A DNA stretch of 64,000 nt from a phage. The notes below the pieces were generated by a model. That model ran no database searches and was not told where the DNA came from. It was given only the letters and a program-made list of their open reading frames with translations. Positions 4,848 through 62,897 of this stretch are shown piece after piece. The translations under genes and the position numbers were made by a program. The stretch lies in the sequence record OZ346212.1; one strand, written 5' to 3'. Every line of letters starts with the position of its first letter. Positions within the stretch are counted from its first letter, which is position 1.

Positions 4848-5102
4848 ATGAAAATTACTCTGAAGCCAGAATGCGTTGAAAATGACCGAGCTTTTAAAGA
4901 TTGCACAATCGGTGCAATTTATGAAGCAGAGTTTTGTGAGAACCCTTTGGTAAAAGCCCTTCTGGAAGAAGGAGCTCCTCTATCACAGGAAGAGCTTGAT
5001 GAGTTGGAAAACTCAGCACAGTGCCTTACCTTTAAAGATGATGAAGGAGACTCTGTCTGGTGCACTGTTAATGAAGTAGTTTTTGTAAAACCTGAACATT
5101 AA
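4848..5102 (+). CDS. hypothetical protein, paralog of 5166-5438
   Basis: SD AAGGAG; shares AF(K/R)DCT...KDD(E/Q)GD...C(T/C)T motifs with the next gene. Confidence 0.6.
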   Translation: MKITLKPECVENDRAFKDCTIGAIYEAEFCENPLVKALLEEGAPLSQEELDELENSAQCLTFKDDEGDSVWCTVNEVVFVKPEH

Positions 5103-5105
5103 TGC

Positions 5106-5134
5106 TTGACAACAGTCATAGGGCCTACTATAAT
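5106..5134 (+). promoter_or_regulatory. sigma70-type promoter (TTGACA-17-TATAAT)
   Basis: Perfect -35 and -10 hexamers with 17-nt spacer upstream of gene 5166. Confidence 0.6.
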
Positions 5135-5165
5135 GGCCCTATCAAAACGAAAGGGGACCACAGCA

Positions 5166-5438
5166 ATGACCAAACAATATCAACGAATTAAAGCCAAGGT
5201 TAAGCCAGACTATCTGGAGAAGGACTCTGCTTTTCGGGACTGCACAGCTGACAAAGTTTACACAGGGGCCGTCCTGTTGAACGATGAACTTGAAGTAGAT
5301 ATTCTGGGTAAAGAGGCCACTATTAAGGACGACCAAGGCGATTATGTTTGCTGCACCACACGTGAGCTAGAAATCTTAGAATACTTCGGTGAAATCTTCA
5401 CCTCTCTTGATGATTACTTAGATGATGAGGAAGCGTGA
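5166..5438 (+). CDS. hypothetical protein, paralog of 4848-5102
   Basis: ATG 5166 downstream of consensus promoter; track ORF start at 5106 is the -35 hexamer itself (TTG). Confidence 0.6.
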   Translation: MTKQYQRIKAKVKPDYLEKDSAFRDCTADKVYTGAVLLNDELEVDILGKEATIKDDQGDYVCCTTRELEILEYFGEIFTSLDDYLDDEEA

Positions 5439-9324: not shown

Positions 9325-9772
9325 TACTGTAGCGGGAGATTTAATCTCCCTTTTTAAGAGCGGTGCTGGTCACCTGATCCACGGTTGTAACTGCTTTCAT
9401 ACAATGGGTGCAGGCATAGCGAAAGATATTGCCCGTGAGTTCCCTCAAGCACTGGCAGCCGACAAAGAGACTGCCTATGGTAATCTGGACAAGCTGGGTA
9501 TGTTTTCTTGTTGGGAGCATTTTGCCAAGAACAGGGTCGTATATGGAATCAACCTGTATACCCAGTTCTACCCAGGGCCCAATGCTGAATACTTCTCAAT
9601 AATGAAAGGTTTTGAGCGAGTCAACGAGGTATTCAAAGGTGTGTCATTGCCGTTCTACATTCCTAAAATTGGATGCGGTATTGGCGGTCTAAAGTGGGAA
9701 CATGTAGAAGATGTAATTAATCTTGCAACCACAGATATTGATGTGGTTGTAGTAGAGTACAAAAAGTGTTGA
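9314..9772 (+). CDS. macrodomain protein, TARG1/OARD1-like (putative ADP-ribose hydrolase)
   Basis: GDLISLF...HGCNCFHTMGAGIA and IPKIGCGIGGLKWEHV align with human TARG1 GDLF...HCISEDCRMGAGIA and MPRIGCGLDRLQWENV. Confidence 0.7.
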   Translation: MIIDTVAGDLISLFKSGAGHLIHGCNCFHTMGAGIAKDIAREFPQALAADKETAYGNLDKLGMFSCWEHFAKNRVVYGINLYTQFYPGPNAEYFSIMKGFERVNEVFKGVSLPFYIPKIGCGIGGLKWEHVEDVINLATTDIDVVVVEYKKC

Positions 9773-11273: not shown

Positions 11274-11599
11274 CAGAGATCATCATTTCAACTGCAGGGT
11301 ATGTATTCCTGACAATCATTGCACTGGCTATTTTGGTGACAGTGTATGGGTTTGTTATCCTTCCTATCCTTGAGACATTTAGTTTGTGTCGGTGTTGGAG
11401 AAAAGCTTACGGTCCACAACCATGGAAGGACTGGCCCCACCTGGTGCGCTTAGCGTTCTCTTATGCTTACGATCACTCCAGTAGTGCATGCATAACCGGA
11501 TACCACGCCCACAACTGGAGCTGGGAAGGGTTGAGGAAATGGAATGTTACAAAGACCATACCTCTGCGCATGTACAAACCTAAAAACAAAGACAACTGA
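11270..11599 (+). CDS. hypothetical membrane protein
   Basis: N-terminal hydrophobic segment (IISTAGYVFLTIIALAILVTVYGFVILPIL); ATGA overlap. Confidence 0.5.
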   Translation: MTEIIISTAGYVFLTIIALAILVTVYGFVILPILETFSLCRCWRKAYGPQPWKDWPHLVRLAFSYAYDHSSSACITGYHAHNWSWEGLRKWNVTKTIPLRMYKPKNKDN

Positions 11600-12780
11600 T
11601 ACTTGAAAATTCCTGGCATATCAAGTATAAGGGGGATTTCTAAAATGGATTTCCTCCTTTTGATATTTCACCGGGCTGGATATTTTAAAATTCTTAGAAA
11701 ATCAGAAAATGGATCGAAAACTAAAATGGATTTTTCAGAGTAGGCGCGACAAGCTGAATAACTCATCCTATCGTTTGCACCATATTCCAGGCCACCATTA
11801 TAGATTTCCCACACATGCTAACCTCTCCCTACTAGAACTTCCTCCACTTACCCTTGACCTTCTATGGTAACAATCTAACCGCTATCTTGAAGTTGCGGTG
11901 CAGCTTTCCAGGTACTCGATCTACTTTTCATTTCAGGGCTTGGATTTTCTGAAAATTTTTCTCGATAAATTTCTCAGTACTCGATCTGTTTTTCGTTTTC
12001 TGAATCGGATTTTCTGGAAATCGTTCCGGCTCTCAACCTGAAATTTTTGGGGACGAAATCGATTTTTCGTTTTCAGAAATGGATTTTTAAAATTTCTATA
12101 TGGGAATATTTTAGTGGATACTGTTTTATAGGAAATTGTTACGGAGGGTAATTAGCATGCTAATTAAATTTATTAAATGCGAGGAGTTCTCATTTAGAAT
12201 TTTGAATGATAATCATTCTCGTTTGCAGAATAACGGGCAGGCCCGGTGATTGTCTCCCGGCCCCTGTTGCCCCGGCTTGTTATTATAGTATCACACAGGA
12301 CAAAGAAAGCAAGGACTTTTTGCATAAATTTTTAAATGATAATGATAACCGTTCTCATTTTATGCAGCGCCCATCCCCGGTGGTTGTCTCCCCCGTCACC
12401 GGTGCCTGCCGTCCTTTCGATATGTATATTGTGCCACCTGGCGGGGCCGCTGTCAACACTTTTCAAAAAATTTTTCTAACCTGGTGCGCTAACCGTTGCA
12501 ACCTGGCGGGGCCAGCCTGGCAGGACCTAACTGACCAGGTAGGGGAGAATGAAGGCTTGTAAACCTGGTGGGCCTATGCTACAGGATAGGTAACAATTGA
12601 AGAGGAGGTACAAAAATGATATGATCCCCCTGGAAAATGTAGCTATTAATGACTCTGAGGCTATCGCCCTGGTTGAAAAGGCTATGGCGGGAGCGTTGGA
12701 ACATAAAGAAGAGTACGAAAATGGTGGTTAACCTGGCGGGGGCGGCAGGTGGATTCTATCATAAAAATAATTTAAAATAG
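11600..12780. other. non-coding repeat-rich island
   Basis: About 1.2 kb without a convincing ORF; degenerate GGATTTTCTGRAAA / TACTCGATCT repeats, two tandem units with Fur-box-like GATAATGATAA sites, repeated CCTGGCGGGGC motif. Confidence 0.6.
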
Positions 12781-13123: not shown

Positions 13124-13309
13124 ATGAAAACCACTACCTTTAATTTTGATAATGCAGACTTTTCTTTTTCTGATGTCAAGAACTGCCGCCGTGATCGTGG
13201 ATTTTACAAGGCTTATAATCTGGTGGGCCTGGACGATGACAATAATTTGCACGAAGTAGCTGAGATCCAGCTTGACAGATTGGACGGGAAAGTACTAAAA
13301 ACTTATTGA
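13124..13309 (+). CDS. hypothetical protein (61 aa)
   Basis: SD AAGAGGA then ATG. Confidence 0.55.
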   Translation: MKTTTFNFDNADFSFSDVKNCRRDRGFYKAYNLVGLDDDNNLHEVAEIQLDRLDGKVLKTY

Positions 13310-27511: not shown

Positions 27512-27795
27512 CGGTCTCCCTCAGGCGGTTGTGGGACGTAAACACTGTTACGAATATCGTCAGCAGTGTAGTAATAAGTGGTTCCAACCCTATCTCGGGC
27601 TGCAATGTACTCTGCTATACCAACAAGTGCCATTGATTTGGTGGCGTATCTTCCCCACTCGTTAGCTCCCCAGTAGAATTTAGACCAGTAGGGAATAAGA
27701 CCGAACAAATATACCTTTTGACGAACTTCCCAGTAAGTGCCTTTTCCGACAAGTTTAAACTCTACTTCACTACTGTTAATCTTTTTCATTATCAA
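27508..27795 (-). CDS. hypothetical protein (95 aa)
   Basis: Track ORF; W/Y-rich. Confidence 0.5.
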   Translation of the reverse strand: MIMKKINSSEVEFKLVGKGTYWEVRQKVYLFGLIPYWSKFYWGANEWGRYATKSMALVGIAEYIAARDRVGTTYYYTADDIRNSVYVPQPPEGDR

Positions 27796-62084: not shown

Positions 62085-62159
62085 GCCCTGTTAGCTTAGT
62101 GGATAAAGCAGCGGCCTTCTAAGCCGTTGACACTGGTTCGAGTCCAGTACGGGGTGCCA
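62085..62159 (+). tRNA. tRNA-Arg (anticodon UCU)
   Basis: Hand-folded cloverleaf: acceptor GCCCTGT/ACGGGGT, anticodon loop CTTCTAA, T-loop TTCGAGT, encoded CCA. Confidence 0.8.
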
Positions 62160-62163
62160 AATT

Positions 62164-62250
62164 GGGGAGTTATCCCGTAGAGGTAGCGGTGTAGACTGTA
62201 AATCTATTGTCATTGCGACTCGGGTGGTTCGACTCCACCACTCCCCACCA
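62164..62250 (+). tRNA. tRNA-Tyr (anticodon GUA), long variable arm
   Basis: Acceptor GGGGAGT/ACTCCCC, anticodon loop CTGTAAA, T-loop TTCGACT, CCA; overall like E. coli tRNA-Tyr. Confidence 0.8.
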
Positions 62251-62364
62251 AATTTATATTTTTAGATGCATAAATAATACAGATAATGGCATTGATATTT
62301 ATCGTCGTTTATACTAGTCACTAACTGCTCGAAAATCAGTGTCATTATCAGTATTATTTATAAA

Positions 62365-62455
62365 GGAGGGTAGGGAGCAATGGTGCTCAATCGGTCTTGA
62401 AAACCGTCCCGTTGAGGATGACTCGATGATGGTTCGATTCCATTACTCTCCGCCA
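62365..62455 (+). tRNA. tRNA-Ser (anticodon UGA), long variable arm
   Basis: Acceptor GGAGGGT/ACTCTCC, anticodon loop CTTGAAA, 20-nt variable arm, T-loop TTCGATT, CCA. Confidence 0.75.
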
Positions 62456-62553
62456 CATTGTTGACCTTGTAATTAAGCGAAAGTCGGAAGCAGAACCGGA
62501 TTATCAAATGTTACAGTCGTCATCGCCGACTAGCAACATGGTCAACATACTGA

Positions 62554-62650
62554 GCTAGGTAAGCCCTTTGGCAAGGGCGAGGATTTTTAATCCTGAAAAT
62601 AGACGAGGTAGTCGTTGAATACATAGGTGGTTCGATTCCATCACCTAGCA
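62554..62650 (+). tRNA. atypical 97-nt tRNA-like gene (possibly Lys-UUU with about 29-nt variable region) or pseudo-tRNA
   Basis: Perfect acceptor GCTAGGT/ACCTAGC, D-arm GCCC...GGGC, hairpin with loop TTTTTAA, extra hairpin ACGA-ggtag-TCGT, T-arm GGTGG-TTCGATT-CCATC; no encoded CCA. Confidence 0.35.
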
Positions 62651-62657
62651 CCTTTTT

Positions 62658-62733
62658 GCTGATGTAGCACAATCGGTAGTGCAATTGATTTGTAATCAAT
62701 AGGTTGTAGGTTCAAGTCCTGCCATCAGCACCA
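62658..62733 (+). tRNA. tRNA-Thr (anticodon UGU)
   Basis: Acceptor GCTGATG/CATCAGC, anticodon stem ATTGA/TCAAT with loop TTTGTAA, T-loop TTCAAGT, CCA. Confidence 0.85.
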
Positions 62734-62734
62734 A

Positions 62735-62809
62735 GGCCCTGTAGCTGGAAGGTTCAAGCAAGCGACTCATAATCGCCAGACGGTGGTTCAATTCCACCCA
62801 GGGCCACCA
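62735..62809 (+). tRNA. tRNA-Met or Ile2 (anticodon CAU), elongator type
   Basis: Acceptor GGCCCTG/CAGGGCC fully paired (not initiator-like), anticodon loop CTCATAA, T-loop TTCAATT, CCA. Confidence 0.75.
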
Positions 62810-62820
62810 AATAGTAAATA

Positions 62821-62897
62821 CTCCGCGTAGCTCAGCTTGGTAGAGCGCCTGATTTGGGATCAGGAGGTCGAGTGTTCGAATCACTCCGTGGAGACCA
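62821..62897 (+). tRNA. tRNA-Pro (anticodon UGG)
   Basis: Acceptor CTCCGCG/CGTGGAG, D-arm GCTC...GAGC, anticodon stem CCTGA/TCAGG with loop TTTGGGA, T-loop TTCGAAT, CCA. Confidence 0.85.

Follow-up and report, generated by a model that had tools for sequence, protein, structure and literature searches.

A conserved module of candidate Fur operators and predicted promoters in a non-coding island of an rV5-like phage

Phage sequence record OZ346212.1 carries, within the stretch of 64,000 nucleotides analysed here (the window), a non-coding island at 11600-12615 that contains repeat families, boxes resembling the binding site of the host iron repressor Fur, and predicted promoters on both strands. 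The closest relatives of the window are genomes of Vequintavirus, the rV5-like coliphages, which are 94-98% identical to it. The island lies in the plus-strand early gene region. The genes that flank it are all small plus-strand genes of the early region with unknown function, and the neighbouring open reading frames (ORFs) match only function-unknown PHROGs. We focus on two tandem units in this island, unit 1 (12192-12327) and unit 2 (12328-12463), each of which comprises a Fur-like box, a GC-rich segment and a predicted leftward promoter. Around these units, 1.2 kb of sequence is 80-99% identical to ~120 phage records, almost all of them from Vequintavirus; EdH4 is the closest. Judged on their sequence, the boxes are very good candidates for Fur sites.

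A preliminary description of this DNA had placed the units inside a non-coding island, and we reach the same conclusion. The published rV5 genome map carries a 'non-coding' box, in which no promoters were predicted (PMC3606486), and the sole long ORF of the island (12206-12562, plus strand) is interrupted by frame-breaking indels in relatives. This ORF begins within the box of unit 1. Its frame is broken by 1-nt indels in two related sequences (L001, L156) and by deletions in three more (L157, L158, L160), which rules it out as a protein-coding gene; a 48-bp deletion is among the frame-breaking changes in close relatives. It has no Pfam match and no domain, and it matches only phrog_14993, a function-unknown family annotated in some relatives that we take to have been built from near-identical annotations. 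A minus-strand ORF at 12194-12325 was ruled out in the same way, by frame-breaking indels and the lack of a domain. Related records show inconsistent short 'hypothetical' ORFs on either strand over 11600-12615, or no annotation.

The two units are paralogous. Their box regions recur as direct repeats at 136 bp (repeat family D8), and a GC-rich motif (family D11) at 12242-12258 (CCCGGTGATTGTCTCCC) recurs 134 bp away at 12376-12392 (CCCGGTGGTTGTCTCCC) with 94% identity. A global alignment of 12192-12327 with 12328-12463 gives 88 identical columns out of 149 and a score of 93, as against 34 +/- 8 for shuffled sequences, a distance of ~7 standard deviations. These repeats bear out the earlier proposal of two consecutive units with a GC-rich segment after each box. 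Both units are almost invariant across 11 Vequintavirus sequences; their flanks vary and carry deletions. In unit 1 the GC-rich segment extends over 12235-12278, between a predicted rightward start near 12238 and a predicted leftward start near 12278, and the D11 motif forms its core; in unit 2 the second D11 copy is the corresponding core. Across genera the sequence GGTG(T/A)TTGTCTC is kept within this core and its flanks vary. Two dinucleotides of unit 1 are polymorphic, at 12240-12241 (GG/CC) and 12266-12267 (GT/AC). All four combinations occur among relatives, and the changes are therefore not compensatory. The GG/CC alternative also divides other genera (GGCAGG versus GGCACC).

How closely do the boxes resemble Fur sites? 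We counted mismatches to the 19-bp Fur consensus GATAATGATAATCATTATC and also tested a second, 7-1-7 form of the site, TGATAATnATTATCA. Box 2 (12338-12360, plus strand) matches the 19-mer at 16 of 19 positions in the frame 12338-12356 (GATAATGATAACCGTTCTC), exactly the position and score first reported for it, and contains the core AATGATAACCGTTCTCATT at 12341-12359; in relatives with the change C12350T the match rises to 17/19. Box 1 (12202-12226, plus strand) matches at 15/19 in the frame 12202-12220 (TTGAATGATAATCATTCTC) and has a near-palindromic core, AATGATAATCATTCTCGTT, at 12205-12223; it comprises two overlapping palindromes offset by 3 bp. The Fur-like match claimed earlier for this first site is therefore genuine, but the 17-mer quoted for it lies at 12204-12220 and not at 12204-12222. 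A register scan added box 0 (12173-12197, plus strand; TTAAATGCGAGGAGTTCTCATTTAG), a degenerate Fur-like box exactly 29 bp upstream of box 1. The phage boxes match the 7-1-7 form at 13 of 15 positions.

Fur boxes resemble -10 elements and A+T-rich DNA in general, and the boxes could be chance resemblances in which A+T-rich, promoter-like sequence mimics a Fur site. Additionally, boxes 1 and 2 are paralogous copies and so cannot be counted as two independent chance events. Nevertheless, box 2 is the sole match with three or fewer mismatches to the consensus in the 64 kb, where 0.04 would be expected by chance. At four or fewer mismatches there are four sites, two of them in the island, as against 0.26 expected from 200 first-order Markov simulations. 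The pattern AATGAKAATNATTCTCATT occurs at 120 or more loci of the IMG/VR database, versus 6 and 23 for two scrambled palindromes of equal composition, an enrichment in viral contigs of 5- to 20-fold or more. Together with the near-invariance of the motif across genera and a 19-nt identity to the host mntH site, these counts make chance highly improbable. The explanation by a GATAAT-rich promoter sequence, which the preliminary description had named as the alternative, is accordingly disfavoured. The remaining two 15/19 matches in the window, at 27775-27793 and 62331-62349 (minus strand), read GATAATGAAAAAGATTAAC and GATAATGACACTGATTTTC; the one at 62331-62349 lies between transfer RNA (tRNA) genes, and neither fits the phage box consensus.

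Positions 12207-12225 of box 1 are identical over 19 nt to the Fur site of the E. coli mntH promoter. When we compared the unit with 5,426 complete E. coli genomes, this promoter was the only match, with 19 identical nt (TGATAATCATTCTCGTTTG), a 2-nt gap and then GAATAAC. Chen et al. 2007 (PMC2189734) rank the mntH site with the strongest of their predicted Fur clusters; it scores 19.9 bits and lies at -56 relative to the start codon. Since the similarity to E. coli ends at this 26-nt match, capture of a host promoter by the phage can be ruled out. From these resemblances we infer that Fur would bind the boxes.

The part of the island that is conserved beyond the genus is 12169-12260, which distant BLAST matches find at 75-87% identity in Mydovirus, Certrevirus, Phapecoctavirus, Salmonella PVP-SE1-like phages, and Serratia and Pectobacterium phages. 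Relatives carry the box as arrays of one to four copies in a strict 29-bp register. The upstream boxes of these arrays are conserved in that register although no promoter elements accompany them. The window itself holds one good and one degenerate box at 29 bp, and the third box lies 136 bp away. A position count over 43 boxes from 18 loci gave TTGAATGATAATCATTCTCATTTGC, in which the positions AATGA.AATCATTCTCATTT are almost invariant. The box AATGAkAATCATTCTCATT thus forms a 9-1-9 palindrome, AATGAkAAT-C-ATTCTCATT. The anatomy of this sequence, its conservation and its identity to the host Fur site are solid.

The box also occurs in unrelated phages. Its contexts in IMG/VR include sites downstream of promoters in one phage family, sites between DnaA boxes in other contigs, and long arrays in T5-like phages. 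In the first of these, a family of unrelated viral contigs (L040, L116, L117, L118, L129), the perfect palindrome AATGAGAATCATTCTCATT is preceded by a conserved CGGCGCC and lies directly downstream of TTGACA-17-GATAAAAT promoters, a classical operator position. The T5-like Salmonella phage SP01 carries, in non-coding sequence at 4870-5215 of our extract (L052), approximately seven Fur-like boxes with TAAAAAGCGG between them; the units are 35, 29 and 23 bp long. DnaA-box-like TTATCCACA sequences and a perfect LexA box, TACTGTATAAATATACAGTA, follow, so that the locus is a cluster of host transcription-factor sites. Sites within Fur clusters are spaced at 3 or 6 bp (Chen et al. 2007, PMC2189734), and the 6-bp steps by which the T5-like repeats change length are therefore consistent with arrays of Fur hexamers. 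We found no tblastn match to a Fur homologue in the window using an approximate Fur query sequence. The evidence thus favours a host factor over a phage-specific protein as the probable binder of the box: an identical box is present in unrelated phage families and in a host promoter, the pattern is enriched in IMG/VR in varied contexts, the arrays change by 6-bp steps, and tblastn with that query found no Fur homologue in the window.

Of the promoters predicted in the units, the leftward ones, which point toward the boxes, are the better supported and the most clearly conserved. The predicted promoter P1 of unit 1 (12285-12312, minus strand), read from the sequence, consists of TTGCTT (12312-12307), a 16-bp spacer and a TG-extended TACTAT (12290-12285). 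P2 of unit 2 (12428-12456, minus strand; 10/12 in the promoter scan) consists of TTGACA (12456-12451), a 17-bp spacer and a TG-extended CACAAT (12433-12428). Placed at the usual distance of 7 nt, the starts would lie near 12278 and 12421. P1 would then have its box at about +56 to +74, and P2 at about +63 to +81. The orthologous leftward promoters of 16 relatives keep TTGnnn and TATnnT at a distance of 16-18 bp around GC-rich spacers that are wholly different. The scan finds such orthologues in L005 (10/12 and 9/12) and L017 (12/12). Within the genus, the only variants of the P2 -10 element are CATAAT and CAAAAT, at position 3 of the hexamer, and P2 is homologous to TTGACA-18-CATAAT in phage W70 and to TTGACA-17-TATAAT in L017.

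Unit 1 additionally contains a candidate weak rightward sigma-70 promoter (12202-12231, plus strand), made up of TTGAAT (12202-12207), an 18-bp spacer and CAGAAT (12226-12231), with a predicted start near 12238. Box 1 fills its spacer. The rightward -35 TTG is present in 13/18 last boxes of arrays as against 3/25 upstream boxes (Fisher p = 8.6e-5, with relatedness ignored), and the promoter scan flags an orthologous rightward TTGAAT-18-TAGAAT in L017. The earlier suggestion that a Fur box coincides with a promoter in each unit is therefore partly supported for unit 1 by the position of the box and the TTG of last boxes, but not for unit 2, which has no comparable rightward promoter. In unit 1, two promoters would face each other with starts ~40 bp apart. 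The GC-rich segment would be the ~40-bp interval between these starts, and it is thus not the body of an obvious short rightward RNA.

Do the units encode small RNAs (sRNAs)? The preliminary description regarded them as sources of short GC-rich transcripts and candidate iron-responsive sRNAs, which we took as a model in which Fur-repressed rightward promoters would drive RyhB-like phage sRNAs. The position of box 1 within the TTGAAT-18-CAGAAT spacer would suit such a promoter, the conserved C/U-rich core CGGUGUUUGUCUCC could conceivably act as an anti-Shine-Dalgarno seed, and in other genera a terminator-like hairpin with a pyrimidine tract lies ~200 nt downstream on the plus strand. In the window, however, no intrinsic terminator follows either unit on either strand, unit 2 offers no usable rightward promoter, and a rightward transcript of unit 1 would meet P1 head-on ~40 nt past its own start. 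On both strands, the folds of the units are ordinary when set against shuffled sequence (z = -0.27 to -1.19), and neither they nor the homologous loci match Rfam at gathering or E<=10 thresholds. RNAalifold, applied on both strands to the leftward leaders and to a ~100-nt element of other genera, found one or two covarying pairs at most, and none of the covariation was significant. We thus see no sign of an RNA gene, and the units do not look like a pair of self-contained sRNA genes; with the predicted promoters pointing mostly leftward, the sRNA reading has become distinctly unlikely.

Two further candidates on the leftward leader were examined and rejected. The 5' end of the leader can form a helix with the sequence just before the box, which pairs in 85.7% of cells as compared with 28-59% for slid controls. 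This helix fails the shuffle control, in which 167/500 shuffles reach 85.7%. A count of G-U versus A-C leans slightly to the minus strand (108 versus 97 of 128 cells) and is not decisive. A leaderless micro-ORF (ATGGCGAGGGG...) loses its frame in L006 and has no ATG in L004 or the window.

The ~100-nt element mentioned above (GCTACCGGCGATCCACCTTCC...GTTAGCCCCGCCTTTTCGCCGTGGGGTGGCG) is absent from the window. It is highly conserved elsewhere in the Vequintavirinae and in Phapecoctavirus genera (L003-L006, L017, L019, L027 and L149-L154; for example, L004 2650-2790), where it lies between two leftward sigma-70 promoters. It has no Rfam match, and RNAalifold on both strands did not settle its strand. 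In Vequintavirus, unit 2 appears to take its place.

Could the island instead be a replication origin? In that case the boxes would be iterons of a phage initiator, and the leftward promoters would give rise to activating or primer transcripts whose leader is G-rich and which extend into the A+T-rich repeat region, an arrangement likened to lambda ori, the T7 primary origin and T4 oriF. The regular arrays of two to four boxes at 29 bp in relatives fit this idea, as do the two tandem leftward promoters, which precede a zone of 30-36% GC (11900-12200) with GATC-containing repeats. Moreover, DnaA boxes flank the palindrome in unrelated viral contigs (L112, L143), and the origin of rV5 is described as unknown (PMC3606486). 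An identical box in unrelated phage families and in a host promoter, however, suits a host factor better than a cognate initiator, and the 6-bp length steps of T5-like arrays match the logic of Fur hexamers. In the window, a DnaA-like sequence at 12115-12123 is not conserved within the genus, and GC skew shows no signal independent of transcription, as was also noted for rV5 (PMC3606486). We therefore regard an origin as quite improbable.

We tentatively favour the interpretation that the boxes are host Fur operators in a convergent-promoter module, which would tie non-coding early transcription to the iron status of the host; in our judgement its likelihood falls a little short of even. On this view, rV5-like phages and their relatives conserve one regulatory module in their non-coding early island, and each unit would be a copy of it. 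The palindrome AATGAkAAT-C-ATTCTCATT in each unit would serve host Fur-Fe2+ as an operator. From ~60 bp further right, a sigma-70 promoter would fire leftward toward the box, and in unit 1 the box would also occupy the spacer of the weak rightward promoter, the two starts facing each other. When iron is present, Fur on the boxes would shut the rightward promoter and form a roadblock at about +56 to +81 ahead of the leftward promoters. When iron is absent, the boxes would be free, and convergent or antisense transcription would alter what leaves the island. With the module occupied or free depending on iron, non-coding early transcription would be coupled to host iron status. A transcriptional role is suggested by the TTG specific to last boxes and by the fixed geometry to the facing promoters. 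The function outlined here, including promoter activity, start sites and regulatory outcome, is what we infer from this arrangement.

Several observations weigh against this interpretation. The rightward promoter is weak: with 8/12 to consensus it does not reach the threshold of the scan in the window, several relatives lack the key A at position 2 of its -10 element, and unit 2 has no counterpart. Fur operators usually overlap promoters, and sigma-70 promoter overlap is found in 83% of predicted E. coli Fur clusters (PMC2189734), so boxes at +56 to +81 of leftward promoters would be unusual. At position 17, where A stands in the Fur consensus, 42/43 copies of the box carry C. This C may indicate another protein, or it may just be inherited from a common ancestor; the mntH site also has C. 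The literature we searched yielded no binding or expression data for these phages, and nothing relevant on Vequintavirinae transcriptomes or Fur. Finally, the boxes of T5-like and RaK2-like phages lie in terminal or injection-stop regions without such promoters, a placement that suits a structural or titrating role at least as well.

Such a role is the substance of another explanation, in which phage DNA, on entry and during replication, would use its boxes to recruit or titrate Fur, an abundant host protein, and the nearby promoters would be incidental. As a sponge, the boxes could derepress the host Fur regulon, as in the Fur titration assay; as architectural sites, they could mark or organise a special region of DNA, such as an entry pause or an end-proximal domain. 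The promoter-less upstream boxes that are conserved in the 29-bp register would be accounted for in this way. In T5 (AY587007; L162), an array of Fur-like boxes at 9473-9630 corresponds to features annotated as copies 1-4 of 'direct repeat C' and as palindromes E-I; one of the boxes, AATGAGAATCATTATCATT, has a single mismatch to the phage box. This array adjoins the 7.9% nick and lies at the shear point of first-step transfer, calculated at 9618 in a preprint that discusses DnaA boxes and not Fur (Davison, 10.1101/866236). In the RaK2-like jumbo phage Muenster, the region of the box array is annotated as a PhageTerm terminal repeat. In the Mydovirus KPP-1, for which a 514-bp direct terminal repeat has been reported (PMC9862379), five Fur-like boxes lie in or next to that repeat (L192 1414-2016, equivalent to 116713-117315 of the record). 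The KPP-1 terminal repeat also contains TCTTTACAAAA and GTCAA promoter-like motifs, like the island.

Against a sponge or architectural site, the window has three boxes only, and one is degenerate. Fur is present at thousands of molecules per cell, and three boxes are few by comparison. The specificity of the TTG for last boxes, together with the constant placement relative to the facing promoters, favours a transcriptional role. Moreover, the KPP-1 homologue of the island is not at the genome end and lies ~8 kb from the terminal repeat. This distance, along with the inconsistent record starts of related genomes, also led us to reject the island as a genome terminus. On balance, a sponge or architectural function seems unlikely to us.

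A broader possibility is that arrays of host Fur boxes are a shared, unrecognised feature of large non-coding regions in several groups of big virulent enterobacterial phages: the rV5-like and phAPEC8-like phages, the T5-like phages at the injection-stop locus, and the RaK2-like phages and Mydovirus at their terminal repeats. The parallels with T5, RaK2 and KPP-1 are few and could be coincidence, and we think it unlikely that the generalisation holds. If it does, Fur would be a host factor that pauses or organises the entering DNA, times early transcription by iron, or is itself titrated, and the module in the window would be the rV5-like version of this device. Titration of Fur would derepress iron-uptake receptors and Fur-repressed functions.

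How does the module compare with known systems? It resembles E. coli Fur-repressed promoters of the mntH and fhuA type in the 19 contiguous identical nt shared with the mntH site, in the placement of a box between predicted -35 and -10 elements, and in the clustered or overlapping arrangement of sites (Chen et al. 2007, PMC2189734). Unlike these promoters, it belongs to a strictly virulent phage and lies in a non-coding island of 1 kb, downstream of which there is no iron-related gene; it would face a leftward promoter ~40 bp away, and it has its extra boxes at 29 bp rather than in 6-bp overlap. With RyhB and PrrF it shares a Fur-type box at a predicted promoter without a protein-coding gene directly behind. 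It lacks a terminator, a conserved fold, an Rfam match and any sequence similarity to them, and is not a member of either family. The T5 injection-stop (iss) region is likewise a large conserved non-coding region with a box array, at ~23-35 bp spacing, in a virulent coliphage and some 8-10 kb from the genome end, if KPP-1 is taken for comparison. However, no facing sigma-70 promoters are annotated in T5, which moreover has terminal repeats and two-step injection, neither of them known for rV5-like phages.

Facing promoters or antisense pairs with starts tens of bp apart are found in coliphage 186 (pR/pL), IS10 (pIN/pOUT) and ColE1 (RNA I/RNA II). As in these systems, the facing starts of the phage module would be expected to produce interference or 5'-overlapping antisense RNAs. 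In contrast to them, a host metal sensor would control one of the partners, and no product is known for either predicted transcript. Phages have already been seen to carry Fur boxes and Fur-regulated promoters, for cargo genes in temperate ones. The Stx1 promoter and the Fur boxes upstream of sitABCD in lambdoid prophages control such genes, whereas the present module belongs to a virulent phage, lies in its early region and controls no recognisable cargo. We did not find in the searchable literature a conserved Fur-type operator module in the non-coding early island of rV5-like phages, strictly virulent coliphages of the therapeutic type, with facing promoters and with arrays shared with T5-like and jumbo phages.

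Other features of the island were noted beside the units. Its left, A+T-rich half contains GAAAATGGATTTT-like motifs at least four times (11637, 11718, 11997, 12071) and, at 11902-12087, three tandem units of 65-74 bp that include TACTCGATCT (GATC); similar CTCGATC repeats are present in Klebsiella phage homologues. Just left of box 0, a perfect 18-bp palindrome (TAATTAGCATGCTAATTA, 12149-12166) is conserved throughout the genus except at a single position. Right of the units there are at least six copies of the motif AACCTGGYGSGSC (12432-12448, 12478-12513, 12562-12575, 12727-12743 and 13217-13230; also 11439-11458); the motif includes a CCWGG (Dcm/EcoRII) site. The GC-rich spacers of many leftward promoters in relatives also contain CCWGG. 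SYGMH1 and YP-6 lack 12516-12563, a 48-bp deletion, and 'Campylobacter phage C12' lacks 14 bp of this stretch. The island to the right of unit 2 is therefore dispensable, unlike the units.

Some database records of these loci need revision. In Klebsiella phage K45PH128C2 (OY978796), tRNA-Met, tRNA-Ile and tRNA-Lys are annotated over the non-coding island sequence, unsupported by any tRNA finder. The tRNA-Met/tRNA-Ile annotation prompted us to consider a tRNA or pseudo-tRNA in the island, which ARAGORN and Rfam ruled out: they place tRNAs in the window only at 62085-62897 and find none in the loci homologous to the island. Approximately 16 MG0656xx records labelled 'Campylobacter phage' (D1, C12, A142 and others) are 93-99% identical to E. 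coli Vequintavirus genomes across the island, which makes the host label doubtful. The spurious ORFs and tRNAs annotated over the module should give way to regulatory features.

What would Fur binding mean for these phages? If Fur binds the boxes, infection by rV5-like phages would depend on the iron status of the host, which would be relevant to the gut and to phage therapy. Moreover, the presence of the box motif at the injection-stop locus of T5 would offer a testable protein candidate for a decades-old question.

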